Shown in pieces: positions 18,658 through 58,073 of a stretch of DNA of 64,000 nt. Made by a program: the position numbers and the translations under genes. Within the stretch, counting starts at the first letter, position 1, and each line of letters begins with the position of its first letter. The notes under the pieces were generated by a model. It was given only the letters and a program-made list of their open reading frames with translations. It ran no database searches and was not told where the DNA came from. The stretch comes from Candidatus Methanomethylicia archaeon (lineage in GTDB: Archaea > Thermoproteota > Methanomethylicia > Culexarchaeales > Culexarchaeaceae), in NCBI GenBank assembly GCA_038727515.1, contig JAVYVS010000002.1, forward strand, positions 96,001 through 160,000, read 5' to 3'.

Positions 18658-18741
18658 ACGGTATACAATAAAAAATTTAATAATCACATATCTACATAAT
18701 CTTTATCGAAAATTTCCTCCTCTTCTGCGGAGTTGTGCGAT

Positions 18742-20346
18742 ATGTCAAGTATAATTAAGTCAGCTGAAATGTGCAAAGTTCAACTAGTGTTGCCAAAGCA
18801 CTATTACTATGATGTCAAATTGGCTTTAATCAATTTAAAGGTTTTTCATCCAGATGAATGGTGGGTTAATGAAGAATTTGTAGAGTTTATTAAAGAATTG
18901 AAAGCTGAAGAAAATATAGATTTAAAATCGTTAAGTAAACCTCATGAGGAAAGTGCTAAGTTTAAATCTTTATTGGATAAGGTGAATCGATTAATTAATA
19001 CCCTTGGGTTGGAAGCATCAACTATTACATTTAAGCTAAAGCATGTAGATAGGAGTTATTTAAATGATCTTGAGAATAAGCTAAACTTCATTGAATCAAA
19101 AATCAATGAGTTTTCACAATCCCCTGAAAACGTCGAACTTAAAGTTAAGTTAAATGAAGTATGCCAGAATTATGAAAATATTATTTTAGAAGCAAAACAA
19201 GTTTTTGAAAGTGTTTTAGATAGGGATGAAAATACCTTCCATAGTGATTACTTTTCATATATGTTTGGATGGGTTCCAAAGGATAGGGTTAACGAAATTA
19301 TTGAAACCATTGAGAAAACTACAAATAAATCAGTAGTAATCTCAGTTTCACAACCTGGCAAACATGATAATCCCCCATTTCTATCTAAATCTCCAAAACC
19401 TCTAAAACCATTTGAATCTCTAATAAAAACTTATGATATTCCATCAACCCATGAAATTAATCCAACATTAATCGTTAGTATAACCTTCCCATTACTATTT
19501 GGATTAGCTTTCGCGGATGTTGGCCATGGACTCTTACTAGCACTATTTGGAATTGCAACTTACATACTTAAACGTAAAGGGTTCTCTGGCGGTGAAATGA
19601 TCAATTTAGTTCTCTCTGGAGCTGAATTATATATTTTATGTGGTATTGCAGCTATATTTGGCGGTTTAATGTTCGGTGAATTCTTCGGTTTTCACATACA
19701 TCATCCACCTCTAGAATTCATACTTGAAGCTATACCGGGAATTGGTCATGCTTTTAGTCCATTGGAAGAACCTATGAAAATGTTTAAACTCTCACTAATG
19801 GTTGGAATTATGCATATAAGTTTAGGATTAACATTAAGTGTAATCAACGCTGTACTTGAGGGAGAATATAAAAAGGCTTTCTTTGGACATATATGCTGGT
19901 TATGGTTCTATTTAGGTGCAATGTACTTAGGTTTATTCGTATATAAATTTGATATTAGTAAATGGATGTCTGGCAGTTTAACCATACCATTAGTGGTAGC
20001 ACCATTAGTCTTAATGCTTGTAGGAATGATGTTAACTGAAAATCCAATAGATGGCTTCGCTCATACATTTGAAGCAGCAATAAGCTCACTTTCACATACA
20101 GTATCATATGGACGTATACTTGCATTATCACTTTCCCATGGAATGTTAAGTCAATTATTATCTTCAGCAATCCCAGCACTTGGAGCTGCAGGCTATATAG
20201 TCCTAGCTATAGGAACAATAACCCTAGTAATGGCTCTTGAAGGACTTGTATCATTCACACATGTACTAAGGCTTACATGGGTTGAATTTGGCTTTAAATA
20301 CTTCCGTGGTGGTGGAGAAGAATATAAACCTCTAGGTGTTAAATAA
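18742..20346 (+). CDS. atpI: A/V-type ATPase subunit I (a), with shortened N-terminal soluble domain
   Basis: GWVP, FADVGHG, SYGRILAL (essential Arg), HVLRLTWVEF, YKPL; about 534 aa. Confidence 0.9.
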   Translation: MSSIIKSAEMCKVQLVLPKHYYYDVKLALINLKVFHPDEWWVNEEFVEFIKELKAEENIDLKSLSKPHEESAKFKSLLDKVNRLINTLGLEASTITFKLKHVDRSYLNDLENKLNFIESKINEFSQSPENVELKVKLNEVCQNYENIILEAKQVFESVLDRDENTFHSDYFSYMFGWVPKDRVNEIIETIEKTTNKSVVISVSQPGKHDNPPFLSKSPKPLKPFESLIKTYDIPSTHEINPTLIVSITFPLLFGLAFADVGHGLLLALFGIATYILKRKGFSGGEMINLVLSGAELYILCGIAAIFGGLMFGEFFGFHIHHPPLEFILEAIPGIGHAFSPLEEPMKMFKLSLMVGIMHISLGLTLSVINAVLEGEYKKAFFGHICWLWFYLGAMYLGLFVYKFDISKWMSGSLTIPLVVAPLVLMLVGMMLTENPIDGFAHTFEAAISSLSHTVSYGRILALSLSHGMLSQLLSSAIPALGAAGYIVLAIGTITLVMALEGLVSFTHVLRLTWVEFGFKYFRGGGEEYKPLGVK

Positions 20347-20414
20347 ATGCATAAATCAATAACGTTTATAAATAAATCAACATTATTGTAGTAATAGTTG
20401 TTGGAGGAAGAAAT

Positions 20415-20864
20415 ATGGATGAAACGATAATCGGTCTTATAGGCGTTCTACTTTCAAGTTGCATACCAATATCAGGTGCAGCCTACGGAATTGTAACCGC
20501 AGGTATATCTATGGCTGGAGCTGGAACTGAACGCCCTGAAATAGTTACAAAGCTACTTTTAGCAGTTGTATTAGCTGAAGCTATAGGAATCTATGGATTA
20601 CTTACCTCAATAATGCTCATAGGAAAACTCTCCATAATCCTTGCTTCATATGAAGCAGCCATGAAAGCTTTATCAGCAGGTTTAGTAATGGCTGTATGTG
20701 GTTTATTAGCTTCAATAGCAATTGCATATACTGGATCAGCTATGGCTGGAGCTGGAGTTGAAAAACCTGAAATAGTTACAAAGACTCTTCTAGCAGTTGT
20801 ATTAGCTGAAGCTTTAGCAATCTATGGATTACTAATATCCATAATGTTAATAGGCACTATATAA
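20415..20864 (+). CDS. atpK: A/V-type ATPase proteolipid subunit K (c), two hairpins, both with Glu
   Basis: ERPE..LAEAIGIYGL and EKPE..LAEALAIYGL. Confidence 0.93.
   Translation: MDETIIGLIGVLLSSCIPISGAAYGIVTAGISMAGAGTERPEIVTKLLLAVVLAEAIGIYGLLTSIMLIGKLSIILASYEAAMKALSAGLVMAVCGLLASIAIAYTGSAMAGAGVEKPEIVTKTLLAVVLAEALAIYGLLISIMLIGTI
20511..20833 (+). repeat. Internal direct repeat in atpK (20511-20602 vs 20742-20833)
   Basis: 92-nt copies with 11 mismatches by hand count. Confidence 0.85.
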
Positions 20865-20877
20865 GTGGAGTGCCTAA

Positions 20878-21546
20878 ATGATGAATAGTAAAAGCAACGA
20901 ACTAGAGAAACTAAATGAACAATTAAAGTATACTAGGAGAAAGTATAAAAAGACCATTATAAATTCAAAGATAAAACTTTTGAAAACAAAAATTGCATCC
21001 AAAAATTGTATAACCAAAATTGAAGCTTATAAAGGGAATTGCATCAATAGAGTTGTAAATACTAAAGATATGACTATTAAACTTGTAGAAAATTCCATCA
21101 AAAATAATGTTAATATGATAAGCAGTGAGGGTTTCGTTCCTGATGAAAGTCTAGTTAAACTTTACTCTTTAATTGATAAAACAACATACATTCTAAAGTC
21201 CAAACCATCAAAGATACCAAGTTTTAGACAATACATTTCTAAAGTTTTTTCTGCGATTTCCAATAGCTTATCTACTCTACGTATATACTTTGCTAGAAAG
21301 CTTGCTTTTCCACCAATACTTTATTCTAAATCTTTCACTATGTCTATAATTGAAGTTAAATCATGGCATAGTAACTTATATTTAAGATTGACTACTGGAT
21401 TTAAAGATTTTAGAAAAACTTTATTGAATTATAAATCTAAGCTTGACAAATATGATTCAATTTTACTTTCATCAAAGGCTAGGTGTAATAATGCCATCCA
21501 AGTATCTATATCCAAGGGTAAAACTATTACTCGAAGATTTCTATAA
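20878..21546 (+). CDS. Basic hypothetical protein, possibly a highly diverged A-ATPase subunit D
   Basis: Co-oriented behind atpK; 222 aa; N-terminus NELEKLNEQLKYTRRKYK resembles the AtpD ELxxLKxxLxxAxRG pattern; weak similarity only. Confidence 0.4.
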   Translation: MMNSKSNELEKLNEQLKYTRRKYKKTIINSKIKLLKTKIASKNCITKIEAYKGNCINRVVNTKDMTIKLVENSIKNNVNMISSEGFVPDESLVKLYSLIDKTTYILKSKPSKIPSFRQYISKVFSAISNSLSTLRIYFARKLAFPPILYSKSFTMSIIEVKSWHSNLYLRLTTGFKDFRKTLLNYKSKLDKYDSILLSSKARCNNAIQVSISKGKTITRRFL

Positions 21547-48783: not shown

Positions 48784-50559
48784 GTGGCTTTGACGTTAAT
48801 TGACATTATCCATAGATATTTTGGTTGGGCTGGGAGAATCTTACTTAGATTCTATCCTAATATTTATTACGATATTAAAACTTCTGGTATTGGTATTCAT
48901 CCAGAGGTTTATGCTTCTATTGGCGGCTTCACATACATAATATCAATAATTATAAGTGTTGCCATTTTTATATATTCAATATTCCAATTACCGTTAACAT
49001 ATTTATTCTTCACAACCTTATTCATAATATTATTTCCTGTGGGTGTATTCATAATTTTGGGTTTAATTTTGCCGAAGGCTTTAAGTTTAAATAATGCTGC
49101 TGGATATGATCAGGAAGCTCCATATGCATTTGCATATTTAAGTATTATGGTTACTGGAGGCGTATCCCCATACGCTTCCTTTGAGCGTCTTGAAGCTGCT
49201 GAATCACTGTTTAAGAGGTTTTCAAAAACTGCTAAGAGGTTTAAGATTATGGTTAGAGCTATGGGTTGGGATCCATTATCAGCTTTTGAAGACATAGTTA
49301 GTAGAGTTAGAAGTTTCATGTTATCGGATGTTTTGCTTGGTTATGTTGCTACTGTGGGTGCTGGTGGTGATGTTGTTGATTATTTGATTAAGAGATCTAG
49401 GGATGTCTTTAGTGGACTCATAACTAAGATTAAATCTGCTGGTGAGAAAATGTCAACTTTATTAGAATCTTATCTTGCAGTATCATTCATCTTGTTGATG
49501 ACGATAAACGTCATGTACCTGATAAGTTTATCCATTGCTAGAATCTATATTCCAGGAGTAAACCTTTACACCCTATTCTTTTTCACATATATTTTAATGC
49601 CCTTCATCTCCCTTGTAATTCTCTATTTATCTGATATATTACAATATAGAGAGCCTGGTGTAATATGGGATCCATACATAATATTCCTATTAACCGCCAT
49701 ACCCATATTCATCTTCTTCACATATGTATTGATTGCACCCTTCTTTTATCCGGTGGAAATACCCATGATAGGCGATTTATCTATAAGATTAACATCAATG
49801 ATAATTTCAATTCTGAATTTTTTCAATGTCGATATTGTTTATGCACCTTCAATATCCACATCAATAGCTTTAGCCATATCTCTAATTCCATCAACACTAT
49901 ATGAAGCCTTTATATTTAGGAAATATAGTATGATTGCTAGTGGTGTTGTTAAATTCCTTAGGGATATTGTGGAAGTTAGGAAGACTGGTTTATCCCCTGA
50001 GAAATGCATTATAACTTTGGCTGATAGAGAGTATGGTGCTTTCTCAAAATATTTGAGGGAAGCTGCAAATAAACTTGCTCTAGGTTTGCCCATAGCTAAG
50101 GTATATGAAGATCTTATGAGAAAAATTAAGGTTTGGAGGGCTAACGTTTTTTTATATATGCTTATAGATGCTATTGAAGTTGGTGGTGGAACGCCTGAAA
50201 CCCTTGAAAACATTGCTTATTTCGCTGAAATGAGTGAAGCTGTAGAGAGGGAGAGAGCTGCATCAGTTAAAATACTACTAATAATACCATACTTATCAGC
50301 AATAATACTCGTAACTTCAATGATGTTTATAGCTGTATTTATGTCAACGGTGGCTGCTGGAATTGTAGAATATAGGGCTGCGATTAGAATTATTATGCCA
50401 TCAATAGTCTTCAACACCTTGTTCATGGGTTTAATTGCTGGGAAAGTTTCCACAGGTATTACTGCATCTGGATTTAAACATGCGCTAATGTTATCCATAA
50501 TTTCAACAATAACAATACTCTTAACACCTAGAATAGCTTCAATATTTGGGCTTGTTTAA
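48784..50559 (+). CDS. Type IV pilus/T2SS-F membrane platform protein (AapF/TadC-like)
   Basis: Two T2SSF repeats, GVSP, GLSPE, AIEVGGG, GLIAGK..G.KH. Confidence 0.9.
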   Translation: MALTLIDIIHRYFGWAGRILLRFYPNIYYDIKTSGIGIHPEVYASIGGFTYIISIIISVAIFIYSIFQLPLTYLFFTTLFIILFPVGVFIILGLILPKALSLNNAAGYDQEAPYAFAYLSIMVTGGVSPYASFERLEAAESLFKRFSKTAKRFKIMVRAMGWDPLSAFEDIVSRVRSFMLSDVLLGYVATVGAGGDVVDYLIKRSRDVFSGLITKIKSAGEKMSTLLESYLAVSFILLMTINVMYLISLSIARIYIPGVNLYTLFFFTYILMPFISLVILYLSDILQYREPGVIWDPYIIFLLTAIPIFIFFTYVLIAPFFYPVEIPMIGDLSIRLTSMIISILNFFNVDIVYAPSISTSIALAISLIPSTLYEAFIFRKYSMIASGVVKFLRDIVEVRKTGLSPEKCIITLADREYGAFSKYLREAANKLALGLPIAKVYEDLMRKIKVWRANVFLYMLIDAIEVGGGTPETLENIAYFAEMSEAVERERAASVKILLIIPYLSAIILVTSMMFIAVFMSTVAAGIVEYRAAIRIIMPSIVFNTLFMGLIAGKVSTGITASGFKHALMLSIISTITILLTPRIASIFGLV

Positions 50560-50577
50560 ATATTAAATCAATTAAAT

Positions 50578-51705
50578 TTAGCTTATATTAACTTTTATTG
50601 GAGCATTATACCCTATGCTTTTCATAACCCATTGAGCATCATCAACAAGTTTACCTTCAACATCAGAAAGTTTAACTCTTTTAAGTGAGAAACCCTTCTT
50701 TCTAACTTTAACTTGAAATGTTACAGTACCATCAATTAAATCAACCTTTAAATCTTCCATTATATACCCAAAGCCTTCTAAACTACTCTTAAAATACTCC
50801 AACGCTCTATCCCTAACCTTTTCCAAATCTATCTTAACTGGTTCCACCGTTACAATCTTCCTAGGTTTCCTCCTTTCCTCCTCAGCTTTTGAAATGATTT
50901 TTGGAAATGAAATTTTATCCATGGTCTTCTTCAATTCAGCTTCATCTTTATTTAGCAATTCAAGATCTTCCTCTTTTAATTCGTATAGAAAGACAATGTA
51001 TTTCCCCTCAGCTTTATTTAACTTCATTATCTCGTTCAATGCATTTTTACCAGTCAACACTTTATTAACTCCACTAATCATTGTTGAAATAACTTCTCCA
51101 TTTTTTAGTAAAATATCAAAACTCTTCCAATTACTCTCTCCAAGGAAGCTTACAAACATATACAAGATTTTACCTTTACTCTCAGCAATAATCCTTTCAA
51201 CAACTTTATTAATATCCTCCATACTCTCTAGAACATCCATTTCCTCCTTCAACTCTTCTTTATCCTTCAACATCAAATTTCTAATTAGTGGCATATTCAA
51301 CATCTTCCTACTATAATCATTTATGTTTACATGCGTTTTTACACCCTTAATTTCTCCACTACTAATAATGGCATTTGGATTTTCTTCCTCAAATTTTGAT
51401 AATTCCTCTTCACTAACTTCATATACTTCAACAATTCCAGCAACTTTATCTTTAATCTCAGAAATTTTCTCCCAACATTCATTTCCACAAATAACTTTTT
51501 CATTACTCTTCATCATGGCTAATGAAGGTTTTCCACCCTTAAAATCAATATGTAAATCGTATCCAGCATGATGATAAATAATTAACCCTTTAATCCTCCT
51601 ATTCCCTTTACTTTTCTCTATATCCTTTATCAAATCCCTCAATTTCTCTTCAGCTAAATTCACTATATCTAAAAGCTTTACATCTTTCCCCTCATTAGCA
51701 AACAT
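50578..51705 (-). CDS. Hypothetical protein with two DUF2226-like repeats
   Basis: Repeated G(N/K)(E/N)..(E/K)I....G...VYE pattern; downstream of pilus ATPase. Confidence 0.5.
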   Translation of the reverse strand: MFANEGKDVKLLDIVNLAEEKLRDLIKDIEKSKGNRRIKGLIIYHHAGYDLHIDFKGGKPSLAMMKSNEKVICGNECWEKISEIKDKVAGIVEVYEVSEEELSKFEEENPNAIISSGEIKGVKTHVNINDYSRKMLNMPLIRNLMLKDKEELKEEMDVLESMEDINKVVERIIAESKGKILYMFVSFLGESNWKSFDILLKNGEVISTMISGVNKVLTGKNALNEIMKLNKAEGKYIVFLYELKEEDLELLNKDEAELKKTMDKISFPKIISKAEEERRKPRKIVTVEPVKIDLEKVRDRALEYFKSSLEGFGYIMEDLKVDLIDGTVTFQVKVRKKGFSLKRVKLSDVEGKLVDDAQWVMKSIGYNAPIKVNIS

Positions 51706-51795
51706 TTAATTACACCCAAATAACCAAATTAATTACTTTCTACTTTAATAGTATATGTAACATCTTTCATTTTAAATTTTTCTAAATTCTATAGT

Positions 51796-53367
51796 CTATA
51801 CCTTTCCCATAGATTCCATTTCTTTAACTGCTTCTTCATATACCTCCTTTGGATTGTAATGGTATCTAAATATCCATTTACTAACTTCCATAAAATCATA
51901 TACACCCTTCATCACAAGCCATCTTAAAACTGTACTCCTCCTATAAATCTCTTCCCTCAACTCATCTACACTTCTACCACTCATTTCACTAATTTTTCCA
52001 ATTAACCAAGAGTTTTCCAATGTAAATTTATGTTGATCTAAAGATGGATCCCATATGGACACAGTCCTATACTTCCCATAATCTTCTACTTCTTGCATAA
52101 TCCTAACCCTCCTCTCAGTTCTACCAATCTCCCCAATTGCAACTCTATCAATATGTAGAAATATATTCATTAATTTAACGTAGGTTTCAGGTATATTCAT
52201 GGGTGGAGATGTAATCCTCTTTATGGCATAATCCAGAGATTCAGCGTGTATTGTTGATATTCCACCATGACCTGTAGCCATAGCTTGAAATAGTACGAAA
52301 GCTTCTTCACCTCTAATCTCACCAACAATTAAATAGTCAGGTCTATATCTCAAAGACAATTTAATAAGATCAAAAAGTTTAATTTCAGTTATAGTTATAC
52401 CAACAGCATATGTAGGTCTAACAGTCAATTGAATCCAATTCTCATGTGGAAGATTAAGTTCAGGGGTATCTTCAACAGTCACAATCTTGAGACCAGGTCT
52501 AATAAATAGGCTTAAAGCATTTAGAAGCGTAGTTTTACCAGCACCAGTCCCACCGGAAATCATAATAGTCCTACCATAATCAAGCATAAGCCAAATATAT
52601 CCAGCCATAAACTCATCAATCACGTTGTCAGCTATAAGCTCAGTGGGAGAAAAAGGTTTAGCCCTAAACTTCCTAATGGTAAAAGTCGACCCAGCAGTAC
52701 TAACCTCAGAACCAAATGTTGCTGCAACCCTATGTTTCTCTGGAAGCATAGTATCAAGAGTTGGATATGCAAGACTAATATGTTTACCAGCCCTATGAGC
52801 AAGCTTCAAAATAAACTCATTTAAAACCTTAACATCCCTAAAAACAATATTAGTAGGTATACTCTCATAACGCCTATGCCAAACATAAATAGGCCTATTA
52901 ACACCAACACAACTAATATCCTCAACATTAGGATCAAGCATCAAAACATGAATAGGACCATAACCAAGCAAATCCCTCTCAACATAATACAGAACCCTAT
53001 CCCTCATAGCACCACTAAGCCTCAAACTACCACGATACCTATCAGCAATACGCCTAATCTCACTAAAAACATAACCCCTCAAATCCTCAGCAACACTATA
53101 AACCTTCAACTCCTCAGTAACAAAATCAACAAGCTTATCATAAACATCCCTCTCCTCATAACTAAGCCTATACTCATCAACATAATACGCAACAGCACCA
53201 CCCATCCAAGGAATCCTAACAATATAAACCCTAGCGAAAGGCTCAAAAACAGGATAACTCTCCAAAACCTCAAACCTCTCATCCAATGGAAGAAACTCCA
53301 CAGCCTTCTCAACAACCACCCTCCTAACAACACGAACCTTAGGACTAACAAAAGGAAGCCTAACCAT
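51796..53367 (-). CDS. Type IV pilus assembly ATPase (AapE/VirB11-like)
   Basis: EDISC, FTIRKF, GGTGAGKTT, EDTPEL, LRYRPD..VGEIRG.EA, TGHGG.STIHA. Confidence 0.94.
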   Translation of the reverse strand: MVRLPFVSPKVRVVRRVVVEKAVEFLPLDERFEVLESYPVFEPFARVYIVRIPWMGGAVAYYVDEYRLSYEERDVYDKLVDFVTEELKVYSVAEDLRGYVFSEIRRIADRYRGSLRLSGAMRDRVLYYVERDLLGYGPIHVLMLDPNVEDISCVGVNRPIYVWHRRYESIPTNIVFRDVKVLNEFILKLAHRAGKHISLAYPTLDTMLPEKHRVAATFGSEVSTAGSTFTIRKFRAKPFSPTELIADNVIDEFMAGYIWLMLDYGRTIMISGGTGAGKTTLLNALSLFIRPGLKIVTVEDTPELNLPHENWIQLTVRPTYAVGITITEIKLFDLIKLSLRYRPDYLIVGEIRGEEAFVLFQAMATGHGGISTIHAESLDYAIKRITSPPMNIPETYVKLMNIFLHIDRVAIGEIGRTERRVRIMQEVEDYGKYRTVSIWDPSLDQHKFTLENSWLIGKISEMSGRSVDELREEIYRRSTVLRWLVMKGVYDFMEVSKWIFRYHYNPKEVYEEAVKEMESMGKV

Positions 53368-53503
53368 ACAAACCCAAAAAAACTAAACACAACCAAAATA
53401 TAAACATATCACCAAAAATACAAAAAGAATACAAAACATATATAAAAGAAAAACTTTAAATATTCCACACAATTCAATAGTATAAACAAAATGGTGAATA
53501 TAT

Positions 53504-53923
53504 ATGGAGAATAAAAAGAGTAAAGGTATATCACCAGTAATAGCAACAATAATAATGGTGGCAGTAGCAATAGTAATAAGCATTGCAGCAGCATTCTGGC
53601 TAACAGGACTAATGGGAGCATTCACAACATACGAAAACATAAGGATAATGGCTTACGCCAGCAGAAGTGGAAATAATTACTATATAAATGTAACTATACA
53701 AAATATTGGAAGCTTAAATGTAACTATAACACAATTTAATGTCGGAGGAATGAACGCAACAAATGTAATTCCAGATAAAACTAAATGGGTTATAGAACCT
53801 GGTGCGTTTAAAATCTTTCAAATTAGTGGCTTTACAACGGATAATTTCCGTCCCGGTAGTACCGTTAGAATAATTGTAGTGACTACAAGAGCATCTTATG
53901 AAGGTCAAGTAACCCTTCCATAA
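53504..53923 (+). CDS. Archaeal type IV major pilin
   Basis: Class III signal KSKG|ISPVIATIIMVAVAI; W at the end of the helix; N-x-T sequons. Confidence 0.92.
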   Translation: MENKKSKGISPVIATIIMVAVAIVISIAAAFWLTGLMGAFTTYENIRIMAYASRSGNNYYINVTIQNIGSLNVTITQFNVGGMNATNVIPDKTKWVIEPGAFKIFQISGFTTDNFRPGSTVRIIVVTTRASYEGQVTLP

Positions 53924-54469
53924 ATCTCTTCATATTTTTACGATATTGAATTTACATAAGTGAAGAGTTACACTTTAAATTAACACAGTCAAATTTTTGT
54001 CAACAAGAAAGTTAAAAATCAAGTTATTAATTGAAATTTTCCAGTTAGAAGATAAAACTTTAGATGCCTCACCGAATGTGAGTCCTGAACTATGTAGTCT
54101 TTGATGTATATATGTAATCATAGTAGCAATTTCAAAATAAGATAAGTTTAAATATTTATTTAAGTTTGTAGGGGGTTGGAACTTTTGATGAAAGTTCATA
54201 TAATTTGAATTTTGTTCCTTCAGTTTGGCTTGTGGAATGAATTTAATATATAGTTGTTCCAAATATTTCAAGTGGATTTAAACATATTTTTATCTTTCAT
54301 TGGACTATTGTATAGGAATATGTAGATATAGTAGTTTAGTTGAAGAGATTTTTCGTTACGAGAAAGAAGGATAAAATTATGATATTGTGCTTTATATGTG
54401 TAGTATTGATTGTTTTTATGACATTTATTGTTCCATTGATCATCATTGGTACATCTTTAAATGATTACA

Positions 54470-54558
54470 TAATGATTTTATATTGTGAAACTATATGTAT
54501 TGTAAACATTATTCTACCTATAAATAGCATATGATTTCTTTACAATATAAAATCATTA
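54470..54558. repeat. Perfect 17-bp inverted repeat, 55-bp spacer
   Basis: TAATGATTTTATATTGT (54470-54486) / ACAATATAAAATCATTA (54542-54558). Confidence 0.85.
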
Positions 54559-54739
54559 ATAATTATAGTAATATGAAGGAAACATCAATAAATTAAGATG
54601 ATTATCCCAACATTTATGTCAATTAAATATTTAATAAGGAGCAACATGACCTAATGACCTATATTTATTTACTACTTCTTTTTCTTTAATATTTCTAGAG
54701 CTCTAATGATGATTTCTTATAAATAAATAAAGGGGTTAT

Positions 54740-55816
54740 TTAAATTTTTATTTTTGTTAATATATCGTTTATAAGAGTTTTCCTGTCTATTTGCCATCTT
54801 CCCTCTTTAAATGGTTCACCATAGAAGTAGTATCTCATGCTTGTTTTGTAATCTGCCCACATGAACTCCATTTCTTCCACTTTCCCCTGTATTATTCTGC
54901 CGAATTCCGATATGAAGGTGGGTGGTAGGAATATTTGTAGTATAAAGCCTTCTTTTAATGGTACAAATGTTGATTGAAATGGGAGTTCTTTTATTGCTGT
55001 AGCTATTTTTGCTGTTGTTGTTATTGGACATTTACATTTGAATATGAATTGATCAAATATCCTTGATGCATGTGTATAAACTACTACTCTAAAACCTTCT
55101 ATAACTCCATTATCAATGTAGAATGATATTCTCCTACTTAAATGGTATTCAGGTATCCCCGTCTTCTTACTAATGTCCTTTAATCTTTCCCTAGCATTTA
55201 TTGTAAGCTCCCTTAAAATAATCATATCCTTTTCATTCATCTGATGTAGTATTGATGGTGGGTAGGGATTTAATTCAGCTTTCTCTATACTTTCAATCTT
55301 CCTCTCCCAAACATTCCAATCTAAATTCCATGAATCTTCTCTAACATTATAACTTGAGAAATCGTTTTCATTATAAATCCATTTTGCTATAGTTGTATAA
55401 TAATTGTATCCTCTTATATAACCTAATTTTTCAAGTTCATCTAAAAGATTTATTAATAGTGGTTGTGAACCTCTAGGCATATTAAATACCATTAATAAAC
55501 CATTTACTGAGCCTAGAACCCTAATTCTATAACGTGTATATGGATGTAGATCACATACTTTTTCAATTATGGGTATATCCTTAAACTTAACATTTGAAAA
55601 AACAACTATTGAATCCATATCTAATGAGGGAGCACATATTTGTGCTGCAACATAATACAATACTTTACTTTCAATTAAATCTTTAAGCCTCTTAGATACA
55701 GTTTTAACATTTAAACCAGTGAGTTTACTTATTTCCACTACCTTTGAGAGAGGGTTTTTCCCCAACGCTGTAAGTATTTTGTAGTCTTCCTCATCTAAGA
55801 TACGCAACTTCATCAC
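54740..55816 (-). CDS. Tandem (double) Lrp/AsnC-like wHTH regulator
   Basis: Two HTH-plus-alpha/beta modules: LDEEDYKIL..EISKLTGL...VSKRL and MNEKDMIIL..DISKKTGI...LSRRI. Confidence 0.82.
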   Translation of the reverse strand: MMKLRILDEEDYKILTALGKNPLSKVVEISKLTGLNVKTVSKRLKDLIESKVLYYVAAQICAPSLDMDSIVVFSNVKFKDIPIIEKVCDLHPYTRYRIRVLGSVNGLLMVFNMPRGSQPLLINLLDELEKLGYIRGYNYYTTIAKWIYNENDFSSYNVREDSWNLDWNVWERKIESIEKAELNPYPPSILHQMNEKDMIILRELTINARERLKDISKKTGIPEYHLSRRISFYIDNGVIEGFRVVVYTHASRIFDQFIFKCKCPITTTAKIATAIKELPFQSTFVPLKEGFILQIFLPPTFISEFGRIIQGKVEEMEFMWADYKTSMRYYFYGEPFKEGRWQIDRKTLINDILTKIKI

Positions 55817-55817
55817 C

Positions 55818-55859
55818 TCCAGCAGATATCGCTCTATTAGCTTTATGGCAATTGCTGAA
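55818..55859 (-). promoter_or_regulatory. Intercistronic RNA hairpin overlapping the regulator's Shine-Dalgarno
   Basis: Minus strand TTCAGCA/TGCTGGA and ATTGC/GCGAT stems; 3' arm includes GGA of GGAGGTG. Confidence 0.5.
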
Positions 55860-55873
55860 ATTCAATTTACCAC

Positions 55874-56119
55874 TTATTCTAGTGGTCCAGGGGCTCCACC
55901 TGGTGGATCAAAGGTTACGGTTTTTATTAATACTCCATCTTTAAATATTCCTATTGTTACCCAAGTTTTCCCATCTATTACTTCCACTGATATTACTTTT
56001 ACTTCCACCTTCTTTTCATCACAATCCTTTTTTGCTAGTGTTGGTGTTGCGTATAATACTGTTGCTAGGAGGGTTATTATTACTAAACTTAGTAGTAATA
56101 TTGTTTTTGTTTTTTGCAT
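55874..56119 (-). CDS. Small secreted protein/propeptide with Pro/Gly-rich C-terminus
   Basis: Sec signal (MQKTK + hydrophobic + TLA|), C-terminus DPPGGAPGPLE; GGTGA SD. Confidence 0.72.
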   Translation of the reverse strand: MQKTKTILLLSLVIITLLATVLYATPTLAKKDCDEKKVEVKVISVEVIDGKTWVTIGIFKDGVLIKTVTFDPPGGAPGPLE

Positions 56120-56315
56120 ATATTCACCACATTAAATTTTTGTTTTCTTTATATTTAAATTTTTCCTTTTTATTGTTTTTTCATGCAATTTTTATCCATA
56201 TTTATAATTTTATCATAACCATTTTTTGCATTTTAAATTTCTCTCGAATTTTTAATAAATTAGTTAGCAATTTTGTGGTAAGATTTATATATGTATTTAC
56301 CATATATTTGCAATC

Positions 56316-56813
56316 GTGGGAAATAATTTTTCCATTCCATATTCAATATTTACTCTTTTTTTGGTTTCTTTATCTACTGTTCTCCCCATAATGGCTTGGG
56401 TTGATTCTCTTGTTCATGGTATTTATGGTGGAGGTGAATTACGCATAGACCTTTTAAATTATAATTATGATTCTAACATTGGATTTTATGTTTTTGATTT
56501 TAAGGTTTTTAATGGTTATGTGGAGTTTATAAATTTAATTGATGTTTCAATTAATGGTTTATCTTTTAAGGGGTTTGGTGAAAATGCGTATTTCTCTCAG
56601 CTTTCCCAATTAGAGTATGATTTTGGCATGATTTCTAGTAGGAATTATGCCAATAAGTTTTATATTACTATACTTGGGAAATCCACAATTTACTTAAAAC
56701 TTTATCTTCCAAAAACCATTTTTAACAATAATTGTATGAATTTCACTTTTAGGTTTATTAAGGGTTATGATAGTAGTAAGGTATTGTCTGTTGAAGTTGC
56801 TATGGTTAGATAG
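56316..56813 (+). CDS. Diverged pilin-like protein
   Basis: Hydrophobic N-terminus ending AW, ELRI, KVFN, IDVSING mirror the major pilin layout; no clear K/R-G cleavage site. Confidence 0.5.
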   Translation: MGNNFSIPYSIFTLFLVSLSTVLPIMAWVDSLVHGIYGGGELRIDLLNYNYDSNIGFYVFDFKVFNGYVEFINLIDVSINGLSFKGFGENAYFSQLSQLEYDFGMISSRNYANKFYITILGKSTIYLKLYLPKTIFNNNCMNFTFRFIKGYDSSKVLSVEVAMVR

Positions 56814-56861
56814 CTATTTGTGATTTGGTAAGGTATTTATATTTAACATTACCTATTTACT

Positions 56862-58073
56862 TTGATATTTATGTTGAAGTTTTATTTGGAGTGTAGTGGT
56901 TGTGGAGAAGTTTATGATGTTGATAAACCTATTAATGTATGTTTAAAGTGTGGTGGTGCACTACTATACAAATATGATTTTTCTAATTTAAAGTTTGATA
57001 AAAGTGTTTTTAGTTTTAGATTTGATAGTTTTTGGAAGTATATAGACTTTCTACCTTTAAGGGGTGTTCAAGACGTAATTTCTTTAGGTGAAATTTTCAC
57101 TCCAATTATACGTTTAGATGGAGATTTATCTTATGGTTGTAGAAATCTTTTTGTTAAAGATGATGGTCATTTGCCCACTGGAACTTTTAAGGCTAGGGGT
57201 ATGGCTTTAGCAGTATCCATCCTTAAGGGTTTGGGTGTTTCTAGAGTTGCAATTCCAAGTGCTGGTAATGCTGCTGCAGCTTTATCTGCTTATGGTGCTA
57301 GAGCTGGATTGGAGGTTTATGCCTTTATGCCTAAAGATGCTCCAATAAGTACTTTGAAGGAATGTGTTTATATGGGTGCTAAGGTCTATTTGGTTGATGG
57401 TTTAATTAATGATTGTGCCAGTATTGTTTCTAGGCTTAGGGATTTTTATGGATGGTTTGATGTTTCCACTAATAAGCAGCCATATAGGTTTGAAGGTTAT
57501 AAGCTTATGGCATATGAGATTTCAGAGCAATTTGATTGGGATCCTCCTGATTACATAATATTTCCTACTGGTGGTGGTGAGGGTGTTATTGGTCTTTGGA
57601 AGGGGTTTAATGAGCTTATGGAGATTGGCTGGGTTGATAATATGCCGAAGCTTATAATTGTTCAATCCACTGGTTGTATGCCTTTGGTTAAGGCTTTCAA
57701 TGAAAATATGAAGGAAGTTTCTGATGTTTGGGTTAATGCTCAAACTATTGCTGCTGGTTTAAGGGTTCCAAAGCCTTATGCAAGTTATTTGATTCTTAAG
57801 GCTGTTAGGGATAGTGGTGGTTATGCTATTGCTGTGGGTGATGATGAGATTATGGATGCCATGAAGATTCTATCTAGAAATGGGTTTTTCACATGTCCAG
57901 AGGCTGCTTCAACTTATGCTGCTCTTAAACATCTACTTGATGATGGTATTGTGGATTCATCTGATAAAATCCTATTATACTTTACTGGTTCTGGTTTAAA
58001 ATATCTTGATGTTTACGCATTGAATGTGGATAATCTTCCAATATTACCTAAGGATGCTACTTCTCTTCCATAA
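56862..58073 (+). CDS. thrC: Threonine synthase (PLP)
   Basis: N-terminal Zn ribbon, PTGTFKARG, SAGNA, PTGGG, TGSGLK. Confidence 0.88.
   Translation: MIFMLKFYLECSGCGEVYDVDKPINVCLKCGGALLYKYDFSNLKFDKSVFSFRFDSFWKYIDFLPLRGVQDVISLGEIFTPIIRLDGDLSYGCRNLFVKDDGHLPTGTFKARGMALAVSILKGLGVSRVAIPSAGNAAAALSAYGARAGLEVYAFMPKDAPISTLKECVYMGAKVYLVDGLINDCASIVSRLRDFYGWFDVSTNKQPYRFEGYKLMAYEISEQFDWDPPDYIIFPTGGGEGVIGLWKGFNELMEIGWVDNMPKLIIVQSTGCMPLVKAFNENMKEVSDVWVNAQTIAAGLRVPKPYASYLILKAVRDSGGYAIAVGDDEIMDAMKILSRNGFFTCPEAASTYAALKHLLDDGIVDSSDKILLYFTGSGLKYLDVYALNVDNLPILPKDATSLP

Follow-up and report, generated by a model that had tools for sequence, protein, structure and literature searches.

In the genome of a hot-spring archaeon of the Methanomethylicia, A and C are almost gone from the bottom strand of ~1 kb of DNA beside an exchanged pilin gene. 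The best explanation is that this footprint is a locus-anchored mutational trace rather than a functional element. Our best reading of its cause, which we hold tentatively, is that repeated allele-replacement recombination has left its mark on a conserved homology arm. The switch in strand composition is not unique: switches of the same polarity occur across the genome, and this one is the extreme case. The locus lies in the window, the whole 64,000-nucleotide stretch of DNA that was analysed, and consists of the following parts (positions in the window).

48784..50559, + strand: TadC/PilC-like membrane platform (T2SSF; profile match), at the end of the gradient tail
50578..51705, - strand: 375-aa gene of no known family, kept beside the ATPase, where the gradient fades (profile search, relatives' gene order)
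51796..53367, - strand: type IV pilus assembly ATPase (T2SSE/FlaI-like, 523 aa; Pfam PF00437, NCBIfam)
52900..53640, no strand: footprint core, bottom strand nearly without A and C at synonymous sites (site counts)
53068..53367, - strand: first 300 nt of the ATPase gene, possible inter-genus recombinant tract (identities, informative sites)
53368..53503, no strand: divergent ATPase/pilin intergenic region, top strand 76% A+C (sequence, counts)
53504..53640, + strand: conserved pilin signal peptide and N-terminal helix (TIGR02537)
53641..53923, + strand: variable pilin head (allele comparison)
53924..54739, no strand: variable gap 3' of the pilin gene (comparison with relatives, cover in hot-spring runs)
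54740..55816, - strand: Lrp/AsnC-type regulator, where conserved genes resume right of the variable block (profile match)
56862..58073, + strand: threonine synthase (profile match)

The strand switch has one graded and one sharp end

The top strand at ~52.9-53.4 kb holds the most A+C-rich 500 bp of the whole 1.59 Mb genome and, with T at 0 of 45 four-fold sites, its strongest local anomaly. Indeed, an extreme local switch had been claimed from the letters alone (the sequence-only reading), and all four of its hand base counts of 60-nt lines are exact. The top-strand T/(T+A) ratio at four-fold sites, 0.65 in the background, is 0.58 at 48.3-50.5 kb, 0.43 at 50.5-52.2 kb, 0.20 at 52.2-52.9 kb and 0.04 at 52.9-53.65 kb, where 3 T are found with 77 A (binomial p ~2e-31). 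Leftward, the T/A bias half-recovers at ~1 kb; the fading is gradual, as had been proposed, and the reversal fades within 1-3 kb. At the other end, the bias stops at ~53.64 kb, which is pilin codon ~45, and does not flip back across ~53.7-54.7 kb as first read.

Both T and G are scarce on the top strand across all site classes, in two oppositely oriented genes and in intergenic DNA (81 A, 23 C, 26 T and 6 G between the ATPase and pilin genes). On the ATPase coding strand, the four-fold T:A ratio is 54:1 in codons 1-150 and ~1:1 beyond codon 375. The amino acids are shifted too; V/(V+I) is 0.69 in residues 25-150 but 0.42-0.45 later, which bears out the claim of a V-enriched N-terminus. The pilin gene, recognized as a type IV pilin by its class III signal peptide and N-terminal hydrophobic helix (TIGR02537, 31.9 bits with a cut-off of 20), has A/C-ending codons in the helix (T:A 19:267) and no codon bias in the head (234:316), both summed over the same 11 related alleles, which are not independent of one another.

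The footprint is one-sided. Of the two-sided switch in the sequence-only reading, the left arm is extreme, while the right arm is only mildly above the contig's T-rich background: T/(T+A) is 0.62 at 54.7-55.8 kb and 0.80 at 55.8-59 kb, against a background of 0.65-0.68. A weak T-rich top strand covers the first 300 bp of the Lrp/AsnC-type gene, and threonine synthase (118:33) is moderately above the replichore background. Of the two lines cited for this side, the one with 40/60 G+T has a count that 6% of the contig's 60-nt lines reach, and the one with 35/60 T is poly-T between genes.

Judged by the archaeal consensus, a TATA-like TTTAAATA at 53455-53462, preceded by a purine-rich BRE-like run, is a candidate promoter; GGTGA stands at 53493-53497, ahead of the pilin gene. 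A sigma-70 promoter scan, a method unsuited to archaea, gave a chance-level result. A repeat search of 50-58.5 kb yielded nothing beyond low-complexity chance families, Rfam gave no family at threshold in the variable gap (three matches were sub-threshold), and an exact protein look-up gave no match.

Conservation of the switch and exchange of the pilin head

The strand switch is real and no assembly artefact. The gradient, scored by ATPase codon bin, is kept in ten genomes of the order, and recurs together with the gene order ATPase-pilin-(variable)-Lrp in independent genomes of several genera, a recurrence that contradicts the mis-assembly or chimera at ~53.7 kb that had been named as a possible flaw. 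In addition, one independent contig covers 52253-53610 with 3 differences, and relative G001 has parts of the variable block in common. That the switch is an inversion, a foreign block or a mis-assembly is barely conceivable, even though cover from other runs falls at 53.6-54.7 kb and no contig among those listed spans the whole stretch: the gradient sits within one intact gene, and a flat skew with two sharp ends is absent.

The pilin head is swapped between strains, with its left breakpoint at codon ~45, and the end of the bias coincides with this breakpoint (11 alleles). Directly past the helix, identity between alleles drops to about 40-55%. Five sequences like those of genus g4 are 90-98% identical up to the helix end and about 40-57% beyond, as at an allele-replacement hotspot. 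Near-identical strains bear unrelated pilin heads, and one MAG holds two. Contigs from other populations stop at 53608-53617, and cover is lost at 53.6-54.7 kb; the length and content of the variable gap differ in every relative, with little or no cover from other hot-spring runs. A metagenome scan returned four close loci only, none from this species. The start of the ATPase gene (53068..53367) is possibly an inter-genus recombinant tract, being 93% and 89% identical to g4 and 87% to the otherwise closer G001; informative sites divide 6 versus 1 in nt 1-150 and 15 versus 56 later (Fisher p=0.001, with few sites and a segment chosen post hoc).

The mutation spectrum suggests single-strand damage

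Left of pilin codon ~45, the bottom strand is nearly saturated with G/T wherever a position is free to vary, contrary to the direction of the local fork. In the core, bottom-strand T is 0.92 at four-fold sites, G is 41/41 at purine two-fold sites and T is 0.97 at pyrimidine two-fold sites. The spectrum (A>G, C>T and purine>T) is that of the genome's replichore bias, a match suggestive of single-strand damage. The C>T plus A>G signature of single-stranded DNA in the sequence-only reading was thus right about a damage-like bottom strand but insufficient: two-fold sites fit pure deamination, while 92% T at four-fold sites requires purine>T transversions besides transitions. Loss of endonuclease V was rejected as a cause; the enzyme was not found in family f1, yet f2 and f3 keep it and show the gradient.

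If selection on RNA or DNA were responsible, for a U/G-rich ATPase mRNA start or for a T-free top strand that avoids termination, we would expect conservation across an order, as we find, and the low synonymous divergence in codons 1-100 would fit. Codons ending in A/C are mildly favoured in highly expressed genes, a preference that could add to the bias in the pilin helix. We nevertheless consider selection very improbable, as the depletion of T and G ignores site class, coding status and gene orientation and extends to amino acids. Moreover, ATPase orthologues outside the order and a third ATPase paralogue lack the gradient, and in G011 it runs against an opposite background.

The footprint is not an ORB origin

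The polarity is indeed origin-like, as had been claimed, since the leading strand of the lineage is G/T-rich. A cdc6-less replication start, however, is not supported. Two intact cdc6 genes are present, with matches on contigs C3 and C5 and none on the pilin contig, C2, and the neighbours of the footprint are pilus, Lrp and thrC genes, not an initiator as expected beside an ORB/Cdc6 origin. No ORB-like site lies within 2.5 kb of the ATPase start at 15 pilin loci, while the same pattern finds 3 sites at C3:181 kb in 11 of 11 genomes (0.05 expected). That ORB locus shows only a small skew step, arm skew being about zero there and ramping up over ~100 kb. At the pilin locus, there is no long-range change of replichore polarity, the top strand being T-rich for >100 kb on both sides, and the reversal fades inside this unchanged replichore.

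A minor Cdc6-independent start, primed by an R-loop or D-loop and with a leftward fork that is short-lived or rarely used, would share the polarity and spectrum of replication; the ramp at the ORB origin could mean dispersed initiation, and origin-independent initiation exists in archaea, according to a 2026 survey (PMC12999951). We find such a start improbable: a full reversal that fades so fast demands that almost all leftward forks stop at once, the ORB triplet is conserved elsewhere, and the right arm is weak here and absent in G008.

Recombination and transcription as possible causes of the footprint

Under the recombination reading, the G/T-rich strand would be the one exposed as single-stranded DNA, where deamination would produce the A>G and C>T changes, and depurination or oxidation the purine>T changes, at high temperature. 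New pilin heads would arrive as linear DNA, integrate by ends-out homologous recombination and probably be favoured because pili are virus receptors; archaeal virus receptors include pili and S-layers (PMC10791045). In the conserved arm, the strand whose 5'-3' direction leads away from the swapped part would be single-stranded, as a resected 3' tail, a displaced D-loop strand or the new strand of short D-loop synthesis, the nascent strand of which is a known damage target (PMC9262586). Every selected swap would bring the conserved arm along, exposing it far oftener than ordinary DNA. The signal would accumulate on the left, where the arm is fixed (helix, promoter and ATPase start), and be weaker on the right, where the crossover is variable; with short tracts, no lasting fork is needed. 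Thus, of the pilin-replacement hotspot in the sequence-only reading, we retain the repeated replacement, but prefer short-tract exposure of homology arms to chromosome-replicating forks.

In favour of recombination, we count the bias ending at the breakpoint, the unrelated heads in near-identical strains, the loss of cover, the possible mosaic in the ATPase start and the ends-out geometry, in which 3' tails point outward (PMC3367456). Switches of the same polarity also flank pilin 2, the S-layer gene (upstream, in most relatives) and 3 of 4 CRISPR arrays, and strong flanks are lacking at EF-1alpha, Alba, thermosome, proteasome and tRNA genes. Furthermore, the switch grows with gene divergence: the signed switch around a gene is 0.00 if it is at least 80% identical to G003, and 0.08-0.14 if <60% identical or absent (t=3.6 after gap length, 3.2 without the index loci, 2.2 in G003).

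Other observations count against it. Gap length outpredicts divergence (t ~5), and synteny-break gaps, although higher in mean than conserved gaps, are not significantly so within gap-size classes (p 0.3-0.7). At pilin 2, the arm is just as strong, yet the head is 62-69% conserved across genera; a 411-aa secreted gene has no identity breakpoint at the end of its bias; and a moderate signal lies upstream of the conserved ATP-synthase c gene (-0.5 to -0.6 in both genomes). Divergence may result from the bias instead of causing it, and the unbiased head could simply be a recent import. Plain break resection predicts the opposite polarity (PMC6786661), and Sulfolobus transformation with short DNA departed from ends-out models (PMC3367456).

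The main rival, possible but unlikely in our judgement, is transcription-linked exposure of the antisense strand upstream of CRISPR arrays and of membrane-targeted genes with very high expression (pilin, S-layer, archaellin, ATP-synthase c), through paused passing forks with loss of the nascent leading strand, negative supercoiling in the wake of tethered RNA polymerases, or divergent RNA that forms R-loops. The ATP-synthase c signal fits this rival, as do the strongest upstream signals of G003 (S-layer, a secreted 413-aa protein and pilin), the small same-polarity step carried by all gaps of at least 30 bp, and switch centres 45-100 codons into genes, close to the expected point of signal-peptide emergence. 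In E. coli, negative supercoils become trapped through transertion (PMC9352719). However, the signal-peptide term is weak (t=2.1, 1.2 without the index loci, 1.6 in G003) and no such effect is seen at multi-membrane genes, in an ORF-based gene set with some wrong starts and crude proxies for the expression and signal-peptide classes. The rRNA operon and tRNAs show little, CRISPR flanks are two-sided with a polarity independent of array orientation, and supercoiling alone picks no strand. Exposure of a neighbour gene's non-template strand was rejected as sole cause, the bias upstream of the S-layer gene being the same in either gene orientation, and so was an ATPase-specific cause, since non-ATPase flanks show the switch and the third ATPase does not.

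Implications and comparison with known systems

More broadly, loci exchanged between cells in this order (pilin heads, S-layer, CRISPR arrays) might leave a fixed-polarity single-strand footprint on their homology arms, recoding proteins, although we are rather doubtful of this generalization. If it holds, a single genome could suffice to locate recombination hotspots and estimate tract lengths (~1 kb), and GRINS might arise in the same way. With recombination as the cause, base composition would map allele swapping and tract length in uncultured archaea under virus pressure; with transcription or fork pausing, it would map fork barriers. Either way, the footprint warns against taking local skew minima in archaea for origins, and phylogenetic use of the ATPase N-terminus has to reckon with its compositional bias.

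The vertebrate mitochondrial heavy strand is likewise enriched in G/T by A>G and C>T, graded with single-stranded time. There, however, the gradient starts at defined origins and extends over an entire replicon; the footprint is local and inside a bidirectionally replicated chromosome. With archaeal ORB/Cdc6 origins and replication skew, it shares the keto/amino spectrum and origin polarity, in a genome with clear replichores, but it lacks ORBs and a nearby cdc6, is lopsided and fades quickly, and the step at the true ORB locus is much smaller. Strand-specific mutation is weak in archaea according to the 2026 survey (PMC12999951), unlike in this order, which has a strong replichore bias and sharp local switches of one polarity.

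Mutation clusters of break repair and BIR (PMC6786661, PMC9262586) are similar in their strand switch centred on a recombination site and their damaged single-stranded intermediates. They are, however, single events in yeast or tumours, while the composition of the footprint is close to equilibrium and has been kept throughout an order; here A>G dominates, and APOBEC is absent. Bidirectional resection also has the opposite polarity (top strand left, bottom strand right; PMC6786661): here the bottom strand is G/T-rich on the left, assuming that the G/T-rich strand is the damaged one.

Our literature search found no published description of such a pattern, GRINS being closest (2021, PMC8256042; mechanism unknown, archaea unmentioned in the paper). 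Both have a kb-scale G+T versus A+C bias, strongest at third positions, that recodes working proteins, and both have been tied to recombination, in GRINS as gene conversion. Over 52.3-53.65 kb, the skews of 0.37 and 0.30 pass the GRINS threshold, as does the window background (0.27, 0.16). GRINS, however, are duplicated within the genome (>500 bp, >80% identity) and often flip sign, whereas the pilin footprint is single-copy, with one graded arm of fixed polarity, and lies next to an allele that cells exchange; its best second copy is 70% identical over 827 nt, outside the most biased part, and that of the pilin helix is only 48 nt at 85%. Finally, the genes themselves are ordinary for archaeal type IV pilus loci with variable pilins (ATPase, TadC-like platform, class III pilin, variable head on a conserved helix), and the strand footprint in the flank is the undescribed part.

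A conserved strand switch ends at the pilin exchange breakpoint

The strand switch lies in a type IV pilus locus of the source genome, G000 (a MAG of 1.59 Mb in 12 contigs; the window is G000:C2:96001-160000); a genome of the same family, also Candidatus Methanomethylicia, originates from a hot spring. The genes at the switch are:

48784-50559, plus strand: TadC-like platform gene
between platform gene and assembly ATPase: unassigned 375-aa gene
51796-53367, minus strand: type IV pilus assembly ATPase
53504-53923, plus strand: pilin, divergent from the ATPase (conserved helix 53504-53640, variable head 53641-53923)
right of the pilin: variable gap, then Lrp-type regulator, then threonine synthase

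G003-G011 carry four or five pilin-like accessory genes after the platform gene and before the 375-aa gene; G000 and G002 have none of them (window 50559-50578). An 81-aa secreted-looking gene (55874-56119), which is kept across the family, and a 165-aa ORF (56316-56813) have no Pfam or NCBIfam match. Contigs of three DNA runs join window positions 50684 and 58225 with 6 letters between, but the likeness is 80%, and another organism's DNA matching briefly by chance may explain the join.

The four hand counts of base composition in the sequence-only reading were all exact on recount, and the top A+C content of any 500 bp in the genome is found at 52.9-53.4 kb. The strongest local four-fold anomaly in the genome is also here, with 0 T in 45 sites compared to 0.67 in the flanks. 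From 48 kb to 53.65 kb, four-fold top-strand T/(T+A) falls through 0.65, 0.58, 0.43, 0.20 and 0.04, and half-recovery, pooled over the family, occurs ~1.0-1.2 kb from the pilin breakpoint. The left arm of the proposed two-armed switch holds, but the right arm is weak: T/(T+A) there is 0.62-0.80 against a background of 0.65-0.68, a mild excess, so that the feature in G000 is one strong arm. The right arm is stronger in G007 and G009 and absent in G008.

Each of the ten genomes examined in the order has the ATPase gradient (first-bin T:A, for example, 27:0, 19:1 and 20:0), and G011 shows it although the 3′ end of its gene bears the opposite bias. It is missing in four genomes of other orders, in which the gene arrangement differs and skews are weaker overall. 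An independent contig covers 52253-53610 end to end with 3 differences. With the ten genomes, this contig argues against an assembly artefact, which is scarcely credible as the explanation.

The edge of the footprint coincides with the breakpoint of pilin exchange. Five closely related sequences are 90-98% identical through the helix but only 40-57% in the head, with the break at codon ~45, and two pilin alleles occur within one MAG. Contigs from other populations stop at 53608-53617, and cover stays collapsed up to ~54.7 kb. Among 11 related alleles, the codon bias ends at this same break (T:A of 19:267 in the helix, 234:316 in the head); since the coding strand of the average G000 gene start is T-rich, the A-rich helix runs counter to the trend. 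In its first 150-300 nt, the G000 ATPase groups with genus g4, not with the closer relative G001 (6 sites versus 1; P = 0.001, post hoc).

The mutational spectrum requires more than transitions

On the bottom strand of ATPase codons 1-150, four-fold sites are T 0.92, G 0.07, A 0.02 and C 0, purine two-fold sites are G in 41 of 41 (genome 0.22-0.35), and pyrimidine two-fold sites are 0.97 T. The deamination signature proposed earlier is therefore only part of the spectrum: both A>G and C>T have increased, but transitions cannot convert a purine to T, so an increase in A>T or G>T is also needed. Damage to single strands (deamination plus depurination or oxidation) fits this spectrum; biased polymerase errors on a newly made strand may be an alternative source. 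The replichore arms have a spectrum in the same direction as the switch, but weaker.

Endonuclease V was found in none of six family f1 genomes (four near-complete), but in 23 of the 25 other class members searched. Its absence may amplify A>G in f1; its loss as the cause of the switch is ruled out. EndoQ-like and NucS genes are present in a genome-wide search.

The switch is not a replication origin

The 1.08 Mb contig of a relative, G003, gives the order of most G000 contigs, and its skew runs from an A-rich arm, by a ramp through a tRNA/rRNA core, to a T-rich arm, and then drops sharply at the position orthologous to C1:306 kb. Mid-ramp, two inverted ORBs flank an AT-rich spacer of 160 bp and are accompanied by a third ORB (G000 C3:181.2-182.2 kb; L293:1315, 1475, 2298; L294-L303). 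A small HTH gene adjoins the triplet, the rRNA operon is near, and no cdc6 lies next to it. All 11 genomes keep the triplet, against an expected 0.05 matches per locus, and we infer from sequence that it is a candidate oriC for the class. If so, the leading strand would be G/T-rich and forks would move rightward through the window.

The pilin switch has the polarity of an origin, and a cdc6-less replication start had been proposed here. However, ORBs occur at 0 of 15 pilin loci, contig C2 carries no cdc6, the switch has no long-range effect on skew, and its step of -1.0 is far stronger than that at the ORB locus (~-0.2 to +0.2). On these four points the proposal finds no support, and a normal origin at the pilin is rejected. 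A short-lived secondary replication start is unlikely, and selection as the source of the switch is more improbable still. The switch is real, conserved and not an origin.

Other features of replication were noted. At the ORB locus, replichore skew is close to zero, rising over ~100 kb on each side (G003 C1 260-450 kb, L134-L142; G000 C3), whereas a usual origin gives a sharp step. Two abrupt terminus-like jumps of opposite polarity, 100 kb apart (G000 C1:204-226 kb, L288; C1:298-315 kb, L291), have very strong flanks: through the archaellum operon, four-fold skew reaches -0.8 for 20 kb. G003 shares the second jump. Fork traps, a rearrangement, or a late second origin lying between the jumps could account for them. 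A third homologue of cdc6 is broken into two reading frames (G000 C3:140.8-141.8 kb; L003/L005). tRNA calls indicate a strong core/accessory partition: contig C3 (216 kb) carries 29 of 47, and contig C1, at 679 kb, just one.

Steps of the same polarity occur throughout the genome

Among local strand footprints of fixed polarity, the pilin switch is the extreme. All classes of intergenic gap of at least 30 bp have a small step of the same polarity, independent of gene orientation, in G000 and again in G003; gaps <30 bp have none. Large steps are found inside pilin 2, where four genomes give ~30:2 per 300 bp in the downstream ATPase; upstream of the S-layer gene, clearly in G000, G001, G003, G006, G008 and G009 and weakly in G007; and on the flanks of three of the four CRISPR arrays, whichever way the array points. 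Flanking steps are weak or lacking at EF-1alpha, Alba, thermosome, proteasome and tRNA genes; at the rRNA operon, G003 gives a negative step and G000 an ambiguous one. One of two paralogous 410-aa secreted proteins with no Pfam family (L285:1957-3192 and L289:1810-3036) has a strong internal A/C bias and an upstream switch kept in G003.

What would need explaining is exposure of the strand running 5′-3′ outward from the switch centre. Simple break resection exposes the opposite polarity (PMC6786661); the outward geometry results from ends-out replacement by a linear donor (PMC3367456) and also from the nascent strand made during D-loop synthesis (PMC9262586). Archaeal viruses use pili and S-layers as receptors (PMC10791045), so that imported pilin or S-layer alleles would plausibly be selected, with their homology arms hitchhiking. 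We tentatively favor ends-out allele-replacement recombination as the mechanism, at somewhat less than even chances. Genes with ≥80% G000-G003 identity have a signed step across them of 0.00, and divergent or absent genes one of 0.08-0.14; the divergence term after gap length has t = 3.6 (2.2 in G003).

A more doubtful but real contender is pausing, or R-loop formation, behind membrane-targeted genes with very high expression; it better accounts for the gap effect in general, for pilin 2 and for ATP-synthase c. The last of these genes (20415-20864) has a weaker switch of the same polarity (window 18700-21500), present in G003 too; because this gene is conserved and non-variable, it favors transcription. 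The signal-peptide term has t = 2.1, or 1.2 without the index loci, and multi-membrane genes have no effect on the signed step. Recombination and transcription are confounded, since the top loci are both variable and putatively highly expressed.

Comparison with known systems

Our literature search turned up no description of kilobase-long switches anchored at surface genes or CRISPR arrays of archaea, and a 2026 survey (PMC12999951), which portrays strand-specific mutation in archaea as weak, does not mention this class of local switches. The nearest known system is GRINS: the pilin-flank region does not have the duplication that defines GRINS, but does share its skew.
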